A stretch of DNA of 64,000 nt from a phage, in NCBI GenBank assembly GCA_037574385.1, contig GCA_037574385.1_4529.1; one strand, written 5' to 3'. Below the pieces are notes generated by a model. The model saw nothing but the letters and a program-made list of their open reading frames with translations, searched no databases and had not been told where the DNA came from. Of this stretch, positions 17,670 through 60,480 are shown in pieces (the stretch's first letter is position 1; every line of letters starts with the position of its first letter). A program made the translations under genes and the position numbers.

Positions 17670-17677
17670 TATTTATA
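17670..17677 (-). promoter_or_regulatory. late promoter (TATAAATA) for soc
   Basis: Exact T4 late consensus TATAAATA on minus strand about 32 nt upstream of the soc ATG. Confidence 0.6.
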
Positions 17678-17679
17678 AC

Positions 17680-17961
17680 TTACAATTTAGCAGCTTGGAC
17701 TGCTTTATTGGCTTCAGTCATTTTAGCTAGATTTTCAGCAGTAGGATTAGCAATGTATTCGGCTGTAGCTTGAGCAAAAACATTATGAGTTTCGATTACA
17801 TTTTTAGCATTTTCAGTATTCATATCAATTTCTTGTTTAGATAAATTTTTTAGTTGATTGGCTAAGAGTTCTACAAAGATTTCAACATTAGCGTTTTCAA
17901 TTATAGCATTAATATGCTTCTTACGAGCTTTCTTAAGCTGACGTTTATTTAAACGAGACAT
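17680..17961 (-). CDS. hypothetical protein (93 aa)
   Basis: ORF immediately downstream of gene 56 (stop/start adjacent). Confidence 0.5.
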   Translation of the reverse strand: MSRLNKRQLKKARKKHINAIIENANVEIFVELLANQLKNLSKQEIDMNTENAKNVIETHNVFAQATAEYIANPTAENLAKMTEANKAVQAAKL

Positions 17962-18482
17962 TAATAACCTCGGTCCTGACGAGCAAAGTTCTCGGCGTTT
18001 TTCAGGTAATACAGTTTAAAGATTTCTTCTGCAGTCAGTCCAAGGCCATGGAACATATTCAGAACAAAGTGGAGGATATCAATCATTTCGAATTTAATTT
18101 CGAGCTGGTCTTCAGGAGACAACTCATCAATACGACGATTACGGAATTCAGCATGTTGTACTTTCCAAGGCTTCCATACACTGCTGGCAGCTTTTTCACC
18201 ATTGCTCATACCACCAAGTGAAGTCAGCAGTTCACGGAATTCATCATCAATATAATCTTTCTGATTACGCAGCCAATCAACAACATCGCCAGCAGTGGCC
18301 AATTCATCAGGATGTTTGTTATGTTCAGGCTTGTCATTTGCCAGACGAACCTGTAAAGATTTCTGCATATCAAGCATAACTTGCAGTGGGTCTTTATCTT
18401 CGTGAATCAGAGCATTAAAATAAGCTTCTTCTGCTTTATCAACACCAGAAATAAGTTGTGAACATTCGTTAAAGTGTGCCAT
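17961..18482 (-). CDS. 56: dCTP pyrophosphatase (dCTPase/dUTPase, MazG-like)
   Basis: Track ORF trimmed to ATG (MAHFNEC...) giving 173 aa; DPLQVMLDMQ, ETAGDVV, EIFKLYYLKN..FARQDRGY match recalled T4 gp56. Confidence 0.9.
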   Translation of the reverse strand: MAHFNECSQLISGVDKAEEAYFNALIHEDKDPLQVMLDMQKSLQVRLANDKPEHNKHPDELATAGDVVDWLRNQKDYIDDEFRELLTSLGGMSNGEKAASSVWKPWKVQHAEFRNRRIDELSPEDQLEIKFEMIDILHFVLNMFHGLGLTAEEIFKLYYLKNAENFARQDRGY

Positions 18483-18571
18483 TATTTTTCCTTTCAATTC
18501 AGTAATAAGTGAGTTAATTCTAACATTAATTTTATAAAGCGTAATAAATAATAGGTAACTAAGGAGATATT

Positions 18572-18769
18572 ATGTTTAAACTTCCATCGTTAATCAACGC
18601 TATTAAAGGCAATAAAAAGAAAACTGCTATCGCTGCAATAGTTGTAGGCGGCATTATTTCATGGAACTTCGGGATTGCACCATTGTTAGTTGCCCATGGT
18701 GTTATAGTTCCTTCTGTTCCATTGGATACTGTAGTTGATTTGGCCTTTGCTATTATAGGGCTTGTTTAA
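18572..18769 (+). CDS. small hydrophobic membrane protein (65 aa), plus strand
   Basis: Only convincing plus-strand gene: AAGGAG SD 6 nt before ATG; two predicted TM segments; convergent with gene 61. Confidence 0.5.
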   Translation: MFKLPSLINAIKGNKKKTAIAAIVVGGIISWNFGIAPLLVAHGVIVPSVPLDTVVDLAFAIIGLV

Positions 18770-19788
18770 ATCTTCGAATAACGAGATAATCTCATTTTAG
18801 CATGCAACCCACTTGAAATATTCTGTTTCATATATTCTAAAATTTCTTGTGGTGTTGCATTTTCTTTCATTACCATATCATTCACATCCTTTGATCTCCA
18901 TGGAGCTCTATCCCAGAACATAACACGTTCGCCTGCATCTACTAATCGCTTCATACGAGCTATAGTATCCGGATGCCTAGGTTCATTATCCATTACCCAT
19001 ACCCGACGTTCTTTAAATGGTACCACATCTAAATCTATTGAGCCGCCTGTAATAGCGATTGCATTGGGTATGAATAAACTATCAATAGGGCCTTCCATTA
19101 CCCAGACGTCTCCTTCCTTAACACGTTCAACACCATAAATTTTTGTTGCAGACTCAAACGCTTTAATAGTGATATATTTCTGAGGAGCATCTTTACGAAG
19201 TGCACGTCCTTGGAATGACTCGGCCTTCCCGTCTTTATTAAAAATAGGAATCACTAAACGTGGTTCAGGAATCTCTTTCTTATACGTACCAGGTTGAATT
19301 TTGTTAACCAATTTAGGCCATTCTAATGTGAACCATAATCTGTTCCACGATTCTTTAGGAATACACCGAGACTTAACATATTTCACAATAGGATGCTCTT
19401 CAGGCAGCTTGTCCAGACGAGAACAAGACGGCAAAGAATTTATAGTCTTTTTCTCCGGTTCTGGTTTATGTTCAGGAACCTTTTCAATCTTTGGTTCCAT
19501 TCTAGCTTTTTCTTTACGAACTTCCATTAGATATTCACGATAAAGATCTTCGTCATACTCTTTTAAGTATCCGGAAATTGTATTATGATATTGACAGTTA
19601 TAGCAATGCACATTACCTGGAGTACCGCCATAATACCATCCGCGAGCTTTCATTGCATCTGTCTGAGAGTCGCCACAAACTGGACAACGAAACGTTAATT
19701 TAAATGTGCTTGAATTATTGATTTGTCTAAAACGAGGTAGGTGAGAAAACGCACGATAAGCAAATTCATTATCTATCCATTCAGCCAT
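18766..19788 (-). CDS. 61: DNA primase gp61 (zinc-binding domain + TOPRIM)
   Basis: 340 aa; N-terminal CPVCGD...HCYNCQYH zinc ribbon; size and position as T4 gene 61. Confidence 0.85.
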   Translation of the reverse strand: MAEWIDNEFAYRAFSHLPRFRQINNSSTFKLTFRCPVCGDSQTDAMKARGWYYGGTPGNVHCYNCQYHNTISGYLKEYDEDLYREYLMEVRKEKARMEPKIEKVPEHKPEPEKKTINSLPSCSRLDKLPEEHPIVKYVKSRCIPKESWNRLWFTLEWPKLVNKIQPGTYKKEIPEPRLVIPIFNKDGKAESFQGRALRKDAPQKYITIKAFESATKIYGVERVKEGDVWVMEGPIDSLFIPNAIAITGGSIDLDVVPFKERRVWVMDNEPRHPDTIARMKRLVDAGERVMFWDRAPWRSKDVNDMVMKENATPQEILEYMKQNISSGLHAKMRLSRYSKI

Positions 19789-23293: not shown

Positions 23294-24736
23294 TTAAAAT
23301 TTTAACTCATTGGCTAAGCTATCTAGGTCAGCACGTGTTGCTTTGGCTTTACCTACGCGTTCCGTACGATTCACCTCTGCCTGACGCATCTGAGCACCTG
23401 CGTTTTCATTTACTGTGTTAGGTGTGTTCATGCCTTCTTGCTCAATCTCAACCCATTTCTGATTGCCTTTACGTACACCCATCAAGAACTTGTTCCACTT
23501 ATTCTTATCACCATATCGTGATTTGATTTGTTTGATAAGTTGTTGTTCAGCTTGTGCAAGTTCTTCAGTTTCAATTACGGCCAACATGAAATCTGCCGTT
23601 GCTGGTAAACCTGCTGATTCTGCAATATCACTCATGTTCATGTCTGAAGCATCCCATGCTGCACGTCCTACTTGAGCTGCAGTCCATAGAACTGTTTCAG
23701 ATTCTACTGCTAATGCACGAAGTTCTTCTGCAATAGCTTTAACTAATGTGTAACTATTTTCAGTGTAAACTCTGATACGACAAGACCCACAAATACCTAA
23801 GTAATCGACTATAATTACAGACGGCACAAAGTTCTTCTTAAGTTTCAATTCATTAAGCAATGCACGGAATGTATTAGCATTAGCTCCACCAGTAGGATAC
23901 TGTTTGACTACTAAACGTCCTAATGTTGATTTTGAACGCCATTTTTCCATCTTGGCTTTATATTCAGCATAAGATACGTTACCATCATCGATATCATCGA
24001 GTGATACGTCAAGCATGTTTGCATCTATACGCTTAGCACAAACTTCTTCAGCCATTTCCATGGAAATATAAAGAACATTATGTCCTGTTTGAAGATAATC
24101 TGCAGCAAGTGAACAAAGGCCTAAAGATTTACCAACGTTAACACCAGCCATTAAAACGTTCAGTGTACCTGTTTCTGCGCCACCTTTGGTGATTTTATTA
24201 AGAATGTTTAATTTGAACGGGACCTTACGTGCTTTATTTAGATAAGAAAGCCAGCGTGCTTCATAGTCTTCCATCCAGTCATGTCCAACATAACTATCGA
24301 ACGAAATTGAAAGTGCTTGACGCATAATATCAGGAATAGCTCCTACGTCAGGCATTTTCTTGTTACGTTGTTCTGGAGGTAGTTCAGCATTAGACTGAAT
24401 CTCAATGATTTTGGATGTAGCATTATACATCGCTTTTTGCTGGACATATTTCTCAGTTTCTTTAACCAACCATTCGTGGTCTTCAGGAGTATCAGCCAAT
24501 TTTTCAATTAGGTCTGAAGTTCCTTTATATTCGGCTTCAGTTAAAGAACTGTTATCTAAAGCCACCTTTAATGCATTGATGGATGGCATTGCATTATATT
24601 CGTTAACGTGGCTCTTTATAATTTTAAAGACATTTTTTGCCGGTCCACGCTCAAAATACTCAGAATCCATATAAGGCCAGACCTTAGAAAAATAAGCCTG
24701 GTCGTATACGAGATGAGACAAAATAATTTCTACCAC
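23294..24736 (-). CDS. 41: replicative DNA helicase gp41 (DnaB family)
   Basis: 480 aa; RecA-like core with Walker A GVNVGKS; N-terminus matches recalled T4 gp41; order 41-40-uvsX as T4. Confidence 0.9.
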   Translation of the reverse strand: MVEIILSHLVYDQAYFSKVWPYMDSEYFERGPAKNVFKIIKSHVNEYNAMPSINALKVALDNSSLTEAEYKGTSDLIEKLADTPEDHEWLVKETEKYVQQKAMYNATSKIIEIQSNAELPPEQRNKKMPDVGAIPDIMRQALSISFDSYVGHDWMEDYEARWLSYLNKARKVPFKLNILNKITKGGAETGTLNVLMAGVNVGKSLGLCSLAADYLQTGHNVLYISMEMAEEVCAKRIDANMLDVSLDDIDDGNVSYAEYKAKMEKWRSKSTLGRLVVKQYPTGGANANTFRALLNELKLKKNFVPSVIIVDYLGICGSCRIRVYTENSYTLVKAIAEELRALAVESETVLWTAAQVGRAAWDASDMNMSDIAESAGLPATADFMLAVIETEELAQAEQQLIKQIKSRYGDKNKWNKFLMGVRKGNQKWVEIEQEGMNTPNTVNENAGAQMRQAEVNRTERVGKAKATRADLDSLANELKF

Positions 24737-38435: not shown

Positions 38436-38852
38436 TTATGCAGCAACCATTTGCTTTTTAATAGCTTCAGGCAGTGATTCAATATATTCTGGAATTTTAG
38501 AAGCAACAATTTCGCCGGCTGCAATTAGTTGTTCGTCGGCATCAACACAATAGAAATCTTCCAGGCGCTCAGAACCATCTTTATCAAGAACGATTTTTCC
38601 ACCAGCTTCAATAGAATCTTTATAGTGCTTACGCATCAGATGAATCCACATATCAGATACATCGTTATCAATAAAACCATAAATCATAAAACGAGTTTCT
38701 TGTGGCAAAGATTGAAGCTTTTTAGCACTTGCGTCATCACAATGCAGGACCCATGCTTTACGAACACGATTATGGTTATGCGGGTTAGCGTCAGTACGGA
38801 TAGAAGTAACTTTCAGATCAGCAGCAGTGAAACCTTTAGCAGTAGTAAACAT
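38436..38852 (-). CDS. RpbA-like protein (by position)
   Basis: 138-aa ORF directly downstream of gene 45 as T4 rpbA; no motif support. Confidence 0.45.
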   Translation of the reverse strand: MFTTAKGFTAADLKVTSIRTDANPHNHNRVRKAWVLHCDDASAKKLQSLPQETRFMIYGFIDNDVSDMWIHLMRKHYKDSIEAGGKIVLDKDGSERLEDFYCVDADEQLIAAGEIVASKIPEYIESLPEAIKKQMVAA

Positions 38853-38864
38853 ATTATTTCTCTC

Positions 38865-39065
38865 TTATTCGTAGAAGTCGGTAACTGTCCATGCGGAATT
38901 GCGATTAGACATTATTTTATTATACTCATCTTTAAAAGCAGATTTGAGCATTTGTTCAGTAACAATATGTTCTTCACCTGAAAACGTATTGGTCAAAACA
39001 TATTTTTTAATTTCAGGGACAACGAGAAGATGATGTCCGGTTGAATACTCCATGTTGTTCTCCAT
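38865..39065 (-). CDS. hypothetical protein (66 aa)
   Basis: ORF between rpbA-like gene and gene 46. Confidence 0.45.
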   Translation of the reverse strand: MENNMEYSTGHHLLVVPEIKKYVLTNTFSGEEHIVTEQMLKSAFKDEYNKIMSNRNSAWTVTDFYE

Positions 39066-41276: not shown

Positions 41277-42292
41277 TGTGTTGCCTCAATATAAAGTTCG
41301 TTGGAATATTTGACCAGCGCTTCTCTGTCTTCGTCTGAGATATCTGGAATCGCGTCAATATATTCTTTAATGATATCTTGAAGTGATTTAATCTCGATTT
41401 CCTGGTCGTCATCAGATTCAACACTGTTATCAACTTTAGAAACCATACGAAGAGAGTGAACTACTTTTTCAAGTTCAGATTCAAACTTAGTCAACTCTGA
41501 ATCAATTTCTGATACTATAACACGTACGGCTAGATTAGTATAATCAGAATAATTGATTTTGCCTTTAAACGGATAAGTGATTCGTCGATGCCATGTCGTT
41601 TCATTGGGAATAAATTCCATACGTTCAACGTCGGTGTCAAATACCCAGAATCCGCGAGGATCATTCTCGTCACCTGCAGTAAGGGTCCATGGTGTCCCAA
41701 TATATTTGACGTTAGCAGCTTCAGAGATTGTGTGGAAGTGGCCGGACCAGACTTGTTTATAGGTCTTTAAGAAATCAGGTTCAAGCCCATGAGACTTCAT
41801 TCCTTTATAGAAATAAAAGCCGTTCAGTTCCCAGTGCCCAACACAATACGCAGCAGAAGAAGTCTTGATATGCTCTAAGATTTCACCTGTATTTTCTTCA
41901 CACATCCATGGAACGATATCAATCAGACATCCGTCAAAATCTACAGTAGTTGGATGTTCATAAATAGTAAAGTTTTCAAATTGAGTTAACAATTCAGAAA
42001 CAGTGTTAGGTGTTATTGTATTCTTAAACGCCATGTCATGGTTTCCTATCGTGACATGAACGTGAATGCCTGCCTTAGAAATCATATCAACTATTTCACG
42101 ATTGAATTCCATCGTACGATGTGTAATTGCTTTACGGACGTCGAACCAATCACCGTACTGAATCCAAGTTTTAATCCCGTGTTTCTTAGAGTATTCAATT
42201 GCTTGACGAATACCATCACGTTGAATATCTTGGACCCATGGGTCGTCCTGTTTAACGCCGATATGGAAGTCACCTAAATGTAAAATTTTCAT
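41273..42292 (-). CDS. 47: recombination endonuclease subunit gp47 (Mre11/SbcD-like phosphoesterase)
   Basis: Track ORF (TTG) trimmed to ATG giving 339 aa; MKILHLGDFH, GNHD, GHWE phosphoesterase motifs; matches recalled T4 gp47. Confidence 0.9.
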   Translation of the reverse strand: MKILHLGDFHIGVKQDDPWVQDIQRDGIRQAIEYSKKHGIKTWIQYGDWFDVRKAITHRTMEFNREIVDMISKAGIHVHVTIGNHDMAFKNTITPNTVSELLTQFENFTIYEHPTTVDFDGCLIDIVPWMCEENTGEILEHIKTSSAAYCVGHWELNGFYFYKGMKSHGLEPDFLKTYKQVWSGHFHTISEAANVKYIGTPWTLTAGDENDPRGFWVFDTDVERMEFIPNETTWHRRITYPFKGKINYSDYTNLAVRVIVSEIDSELTKFESELEKVVHSLRMVSKVDNSVESDDDQEIEIKSLQDIIKEYIDAIPDISDEDREALVKYSNELYIEATQ

Positions 42293-49906: not shown

Positions 49907-49945
49907 GATAAACCCTTACCTTAAATAGATAAGGGTATTTATAAT

Positions 49946-60233: not shown

Positions 60234-60446
60234 TTAATTTTGGCCAGTATTTATTTTTCGCCTTTGAACGGCCTTAACATCTGCGAGGTATTTTTCCAGC
60301 TTGCGCTTGCGTGTATAATCAGCTTTAGAACCAGTTTGACGGATATCCTCGTTTAAATGAGAAATAGAATGTCCTAATTCTCTTCGGATTTCATCCAATT
60401 GGGTTACAGTAAGATTACGAAGTTGTCTTTCGTTTAATTGCTGCAT
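60234..60446 (-). CDS. hypothetical protein (70 aa), probably late-expressed
   Basis: AAGAGGT SD; TATAAATA late-promoter consensus at 60473-60480. Confidence 0.5.
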
Positions 60447-60472
60447 ATATACCTCTTGGTTAGATATTAGTA

Positions 60473-60480
60473 TTTATAAC
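60473..60480 (-). promoter_or_regulatory. late promoter (TATAAATA)
   Basis: Exact TATAAATA on minus strand about 27 nt upstream of ATG at 60446, overlapping the tk 3' end. Confidence 0.5.

Follow-up and report, generated by a model that had tools for sequence, protein, structure and literature searches.

The window analyzed here is a 64,000-nt stretch of phage DNA (GenBank assembly GCA_037574385.1, contig GCA_037574385.1_4529.1) in which nearly all open reading frames (ORFs) lie on the minus strand. One short ORF runs the other way, in the gap between genes 56 and 61. Is it a gene, when would it be transcribed, and what might its product do?

The plus-strand ORF between genes 56 and 61

The locus is closest to the RB69-like T-even phages (genus Mosigvirus), with Shigella phage ESh27 as the top match (98% identity). 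A 2-kb query of the locus matched 577 phage records, 155 of which cover at least 80% of the query. Features are listed in Table 1. The preliminary description of this DNA had reported a lone plus-strand ORF of 65 amino acids between the two genes, with an AAGGAG Shine–Dalgarno (SD) sequence at good spacing and a stop codon overlapping that of gene 61; reading of the sequence bears out each of these points. The intergenic region upstream of the ORF measures 89 nt (18483–18571), counted from the gene 56 limit in relatives' annotation. In the ORF listing, the gp56 frame extends to a TTG at 18497, as against 18482 in the relatives.

Table 1. Coordinates of features at the locus and of related motifs in the window
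Feature	Position	Strand	Details
ORF (CDS)	18572..18769	+	65 codons; ATG at 18572, TAA at 18767–18769; sequence reading
Shine–Dalgarno AAGGAG	18561–18566	+	5 nt ahead of the ATG; sequence reading
gp61 DNA primase, convergent neighbor	18766–19788	-	TTA (reverse complement TAA) at 18766–18768
TTAA	18766..18769		Common to both convergent stops (ORF TAA 18767–18769; primase TAA 18768–18766)
gp56 dCTPase, divergent upstream neighbor	17961–18482	-	Limits per relatives' annotation
Predicted gene 56 middle promoter	~18509..18549	-	Pm:16038 mapped through near-identical RB69 sequence
CGCTTTA box; -10 TAGAAT	18541–18535; 18522–18517	-	Placement is our own reading of the sequence
AATAAATA, T4-type (gp55) late-promoter motif	18543–18550	+	21 nt upstream of the ATG
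Other WATAAATA copies	17670–17677, 49936–49943, 60248–60255, 60471–60478	-	

A census of non-overlapping ORFs in the 64-kb window gave 102 on the minus strand and two on the plus strand at a minimum length of 50 amino acids (greedy selection), and 104 and five, respectively, at a minimum of 40. The strong strand bias described earlier stands, but the accompanying figure of more than 110 minus-strand genes was slightly generous. The only other long plus-strand ORF, at 38529–38981 (150 amino acids), is an antisense shadow of two minus-strand ORFs, which we take to be rpbA-like and 45.2-like; it had no PHROG match and was judged spurious. Set against about 104 ORFs on the minus strand, the ORF at 18572–18769 is the sole credible gene on the plus strand.

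The ORF is almost certainly a real gene. A tblastn search with its product matched 693 phage records, and the copy is intact over at least 80% of the length in 686 of them. Identity is 95–100% in Mosigvirus, 72% in Dhakavirus NC-G, about 54% in Tequatrovirus (T2, T4, T6 and RB phages, including T4 Dam.1) and 46% in Gaprivervirus VR7 (VR7ORF033w). Shigella phage phi25-307 encodes an identical product (YP_010093341.1), and identity across Mosigvirus is about 97%. It matches phrog_2024, a family of unknown function, over residues 1–65 of 65 (E = 2.1e-27). Between genera, dN/dS is 0.10–0.44 with synonymous sites near saturation (pS 0.56–0.74). The annotated frame contains zero stops; four genus pairs were checked, and in three of them its pN/pS is lower than that of the other five frames. 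A GGAGG-type SD is found in all relatives compared. Conservation had been named beforehand as the test of a genuine plus-strand gene; it extends across at least eight Tevenvirinae-type genera, with purifying selection visible at the codon level.

A chance open frame in an intergenic gap, without expression, might be suspected because the ORF is short and the T4 reference genome does not annotate it. However, about 690 genomes from several genera carry the frame, dN/dS is well below 1 at near-saturated synonymous sites, a strong SD is present in every lineage, and a promoter motif that is depleted in the window is placed exactly upstream. The intact copies and the dN/dS values effectively refute this explanation, to which we give next to no weight.

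The gene is already known: hundreds of genome annotations list it as a hypothetical protein. Existing names include RB69ORF029w, RB32ORF030w, VR7ORF033w, dam.1 in T4T and 'putative transmembrane protein' in phage 55, and source names are all 'hypothetical' or 'uncharacterized' apart from a few propagated mislabels. Misleading names occur for orthologues in T6/T2, CGG4-1, OE5505 and UPEC01 ('putative head morphogenesis protein', 'dCTP pyrophosphatase', 'Holin' and 'DNA packaging ATPase'), none of them supported by the present sequence analysis. The T4 reference AF158101.6 (NC_000866) contains an intact 66-codon orthologue at 17738–17938 that is left unannotated, although T4T calls the same gene dam.1; in T4, the dam gene lies between gene 56 and this ORF. 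Literature searches on dam.1, RB69ORF029w, the accessions and the locus tags found no paper mentioning the gene; ribosome-profiling work on small T4 proteins was also looked for, with no relevant result.

Predicted promoters and read-through at the locus

The T4 late promoter is a short TATAAATA at -13 to -6, with A frequently in place of the first T in RB69-type phages (Nolan et al., 2006; PMC1524935). An element of this kind, AATAAATA, stands close upstream of the ORF and is the only plus-strand WATAAATA in the 64-kb window. On both strands of the window together, WATAAATA occurs five times against 17.6 +/- 4.1 expected from shuffles; the motif is thus strongly depleted, and avoided. All five copies lie within 21–31 nt upstream of an ATG ORF. 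The four on the minus strand precede soc, gene 49 (endonuclease VII), rI and a 70-aa ORF beside rI, at distances of 24–31 nt. The identity of rI in the window was confirmed by tblastn, and its motif is likewise AATAAATA. In T4, soc, gene 49 and rI have late promoters. A sixth match, to the pattern NATAAATA, is CATAAATA at 41959–41966 on the plus strand; no ORF follows it. For the ORF between genes 56 and 61, transcription is predicted to start near 18556, which would give a 16-nt leader carrying the SD.

The motif recurs with the gene in most of the related lineages. (N)ATAAATA is found 12–22 nt upstream of the first cassette gene in T4, JB75, T6, VR7, VR5, PhiKpNIH-6, Q7622, Kosakonia 305 and K65, and ATAAATA also precedes the second-type (B) copy in NC-G. 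An exact TATAAATA lies upstream of the ORF in Marfavirus and in two Kanagawaviruses; the T at -13 is replaced by A (RB69-type), G (T4) or C (VR7, NC-G, K65). The upstream neighbor varies (56, dam, mobE, a homing endonuclease gene or hypothetical genes), while the distance from motif to ATG is kept. In the Gelderlandviruses CGG4-1 and Proteus phage ABTNLPp2, TATTAAATA replaces (N)ATAAATA at the equivalent position, and may be a genus-specific late-promoter variant.

From motif statistics and placement, we infer that the gene is probably transcribed late, from its own gp55-type promoter. The predictions for RB69 of Nolan et al. (2006; PMC1524935) list no late promoter at the equivalent site. The earlier proposal that the ORF is transcribed antisense to the flanking operons gains support from the candidate motif.

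The gap also appears to serve gene 56. A MotA-dependent middle promoter, Pm:16038, is predicted in RB69 with a score of 21.6 (Nolan et al., 2006, supplement; PMC1524935), and maps to the minus strand of the window (Table 1). The 89-nt region thus seems to hold back-to-back divergent promoters, the middle promoter of gene 56 on the minus strand and the late motif on the plus strand. We considered whether ATAAATA is merely the A/T-rich flank of the middle promoter, and rejected this because the motif tracks the plus-strand ATG: its spacing is kept in lineages with a different minus-strand context or none (T6, Marfavirus, Kanagawavirus and Kosakonia 305). A sigma-70 promoter for the ORF was looked for on the plus strand and not found.

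No plus-strand intrinsic terminator was found after the ORF stop; the next candidate is weak and lies 5.4 kb further on, at 24178. Late RNA should therefore run antisense into the 3' part of gene 61. This raises the alternative that the main function is exerted at the RNA level, with a late transcript passing antisense through the primase gene and further early genes and silencing them, and the peptide being secondary. The convergence with the primase 3' end, which is kept across genera and often comes with the 4-nt overlap, would fit such a role, as would the missing terminator. Against it, the region is protein-coding rather than the source of a non-coding cis-antisense transcript. Purifying selection on amino acids, together with residues that are invariant across subtypes only 20–30% identical, shows that selection acts on the protein. 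Two relatives, NC-G and Klebsiella phage K65, have a GC hairpin separating the ORF from the primase gene; it would stop the transcript there, so antisense read-through is not conserved. Finally, an Rfam scan of the region gave no match, and there is no structured-RNA signal. We consider an RNA-only role improbable; antisense read-through into gene 61 may occur as a side effect of transcribing the coding gene.

Distribution and subtypes

In Tevenvirinae, the family gene always abuts the 3' end of the primase gene. It occupies this place, on the strand opposite the early genes, in RB69, Shf125875, T4T, T6, VR7, NC-G, VR5, PhiKpNIH-6, Q7622, CGG4-1, Kosakonia 305, K65 and a Proteus phage. The 4-nt TTAA stop overlap seen in the window is also annotated in RB69, T4T, T6, VR5, PhiKpNIH-6 and Kosakonia 305.

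Several protein types share the slot. Type B is a divergent paralogue (MGT.FYQIWKL...LWNL.VVP.AATQG) of the Mosigvirus-like type A, and two phages have both in tandem. In VR7, the unannotated B copy comes after A and reaches about 70 nt into the 3' end of the primase gene (extracted locus 1707–1976); in NC-G, B precedes A and is frameshifted in a T run (extracted locus 1307–1500). B alone fills the slot in Dhakavirus VR5, Marfavirus, Kanagawavirus and Gelderlandvirus CGG4-1, whereas Klebsiella phage K65 and a Proteus Gelderlandvirus carry a third type. Dhakavirus NC-G has a Mosigvirus-like A copy, whereas other Dhakaviruses have B. All B and Kosakonia-type copies tested match phrog_2024. In a 10-sequence alignment, M1, W31, N32, P37, G43 and P47 are invariant. 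The resulting W-N ... P ... G ... P signature is also present in the K65 and Proteus variants.

The gene is absent from the slot in Krischvirus GEC-3S, Slopekvirus Matisse and an Acinetobacter phage. GEC-3S and Matisse have gene 56 immediately after the primase gene, in the same orientation, and the Acinetobacter phage has hypothetical genes of that orientation in this place. An exhaustive profile search of 1.8 billion proteins and a word-indexed search matched only close T-even relatives, and a pattern scan of IMG/VR returned three loci, all VR7-like. The family profile matched no other ORF in the window, including rI and Imm. Judged by these comparisons, this is an accessory gene restricted to Tevenvirinae-type phages of enterobacteria, with what looks like cassette-like exchange of subtypes (A, B, A+B, B+A and the third type).

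Some copies are broken or differ at the start. Two deposited T4 laboratory clones are frameshifted within AT repeats, MZ375356 by loss of 4 bp and OL964745 by loss of 2 bp (T4_583L extracted locus 1490–1560), and phage a48 is frameshifted by a 1-bp deletion in an A run (extracted locus 1440–1483). From these copies, some of which could be sequencing errors, the gene is apparently dispensable in the laboratory. In T6, an ATT stands at the position of the first ATG of T4 (extracted locus 1490–1510) and the annotated start is the internal Met6, far from the SD; the T6 start codon may be non-canonical.

Predicted topology and possible function of the product

The AlphaFold2 model (family alignment, pLDDT 80.6) has helices at residues 3–11, 15–41 and 51–62. 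The layout is a basic amphipathic N-terminal helix, a transmembrane (TM) helix at about 15/18–41, a conserved HG..P.VP loop and a C-terminal helix. A published TMHMM prediction for RB69ORF029w has one TM helix, at 21–41 (PMC1524935, supplement). The N-terminal part of the window protein carries a charge of +5 and the C-terminal part -2. Across the family the N-terminal part ranges from +2 to +6, and the C-terminal part from -3 to 0 in nine of ten aligned members; the exception is the VR7 B copy, which has an extended tail and a C-terminal part of +3. By the positive-inside rule, this bias predicts a cytoplasmic N-terminus, with the last ~23 residues on the periplasmic side. The product is likely a membrane protein of N-in topology.

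It had been described as a two-helix membrane protein. That it is small, hydrophobic and probably membrane-embedded agrees with our analysis; the two-helix description holds only in part. With 12 residues and conserved acidic positions, the last helix is too short for a normal span, and the model, the charge bias and TMHMM together indicate a single span and a short C-terminal helix that is interfacial or re-entrant, rather than a clear hairpin of two spans. In the model, the invariant W31-N32, P37, G43 and P47 lie close together, within the outer half of the TM helix and the adjoining loop, and look like a binding surface.

Database searches with the protein point to no characterized family. 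Pfam and NCBIfam gave no match, a PDB sequence search gave nothing meaningful, and a fold search with the AlphaFold2 model returned only family members from BFVD and nothing from the PDB. No similarity to lysis, lysis-inhibition or immunity proteins was found in the Pfam/NCBIfam, PDB sequence and window-profile searches.

The name 'Holin', given to the orthologue in phage OE5505 by its depositor or by UniProt, implies a holin or pinholin-like lysis effector. The protein is small, hydrophobic and probably expressed late, it has at least one TM domain (AlphaFold2 helix 15–41; TMHMM 21–41), and in the RB69-type copy the TM helix is rich in Ala, Gly and Ser. But a charged hydrophilic C-terminal tail is missing: the C-terminus, GVIVPSVPLDTVVDLAFAIIGLV, has no basic residues and a net charge of -2, and ends in hydrophobic ...IIGLV. 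Neither an endolysin nor any other lysis gene is adjacent, the neighbors being gp56 and gp61, and no holin family model is matched in Pfam or NCBIfam. T-even phages already use holin T, and copies in deposited T4 laboratory clones and phage a48 are frameshifted. We regard a holin function as very unlikely.

The reading we favor, at a little better than even, is an accessory late inner-membrane protein that acts on a late envelope event. The late gp55-type promoter (AATAAATA, start near 18556) would drive the gene on the strand opposite the early and middle genes, and the transcript would run past the stop, antisense into the primase gene. In the protein, the basic amphipathic N-terminal helix would stay cytoplasmic and the helix at ~18–41 would span the membrane, leaving an acidic, hydrophobic C-terminal part of ~23 residues (the loop and the 12-residue helix) at the periplasmic face. 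The invariant W31-N32, P37, G43 and P47 would be the likely surface for binding a partner. Like other very small bitopic proteins, the product may bind and modulate a larger membrane protein. The process affected would most probably be lysis timing, lysis inhibition or superinfection control. We infer this envelope or lysis-related role from size, location and timing, and hold it as a tentative suggestion. rI is present in Slopekvirus, where the dam.1-family gene is absent; the gene thus does not strictly accompany the lysis-inhibition machinery, and co-occurrence lends the proposed role no support.

A late membrane protein could also act outside lysis, by blocking a membrane-based host defense, excluding competing T-even phages or aiding membrane-bound head assembly. 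Subtypes are swapped between genera (the A copy of NC-G against B in other Dhakaviruses) and arranged in A+B and B+A tandems, a pattern typical of conflict genes, and the gene is restricted to Tevenvirinae-type phages of enterobacteria. On the other hand, the source of the 'head morphogenesis' label in T6 and T2 is a similarity note generated automatically. The known exclusion proteins Imm and Sp are encoded by early genes, and the family profile does not match the Imm ORF of the window. We think a role outside lysis rather doubtful. A bolder form of the envelope-control reading, which we likewise consider unlikely, is that the family is an overlooked late T-even component, either a holin/antiholin partner or a phage-exclusion specificity factor, whose A, B and C cassettes would represent matching specificities. 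Under that reading, its omission from the T4 reference annotation would explain why functional work has passed the gene by.

T4 and RB69 are reference systems, and studies based on AF158101 / NC_000866 would skip a conserved, probably late membrane-protein gene. If the gene modulates lysis timing, lysis inhibition or superinfection, it would be a new component of a very well-studied phage pathway; otherwise it simply adds to the conserved small accessory genes of unknown function.

Among known T-even proteins, the RI antiholin and Imm of T4 are the natural comparison, being likewise products of small, membrane-anchored, T-even-specific accessory genes. Neither shares sequence similarity with the window protein. 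RI has a globular periplasmic domain of ~70 residues, whereas the window protein has only ~23 residues past the TM helix, and the family profile misses the rI of the window; an RI-type antiholin is thus a poor fit. Imm is made early and has two transmembrane helices. In mode of action, the closest likeness may be to bitopic proteins of the AcrZ, MgtS and MgrB type, which are also shorter than 70 amino acids, with a single TM helix and conservation on one helix face and the juxtamembrane region, a pattern that suggests binding to a larger membrane protein. This comparison is an analogy of mechanism, not homology.

In its candidate promoter, the gene resembles soc, rI and gene 49, T4 late genes inside early regions that likewise have a short late motif 21–31 nt upstream of the start codon. 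Those three lie on the same strand as their early neighbors, whereas the window ORF runs opposite to its neighbors, toward the 3' end of the primase gene, and its motif begins with A rather than T. RB69ORF029w, RB32ORF030w, VR7ORF033w and T4T dam.1 are the same gene in the same place, convergent with gp61, and the window copy is an ordinary member of this family. The existing records of the dam.1/RB69ORF029w family come without function, promoter or topology; to these the present analysis adds a candidate late-promoter assignment, a subtype structure with fixed primase synteny, a predicted single-span topology and the omission from the T4 reference.
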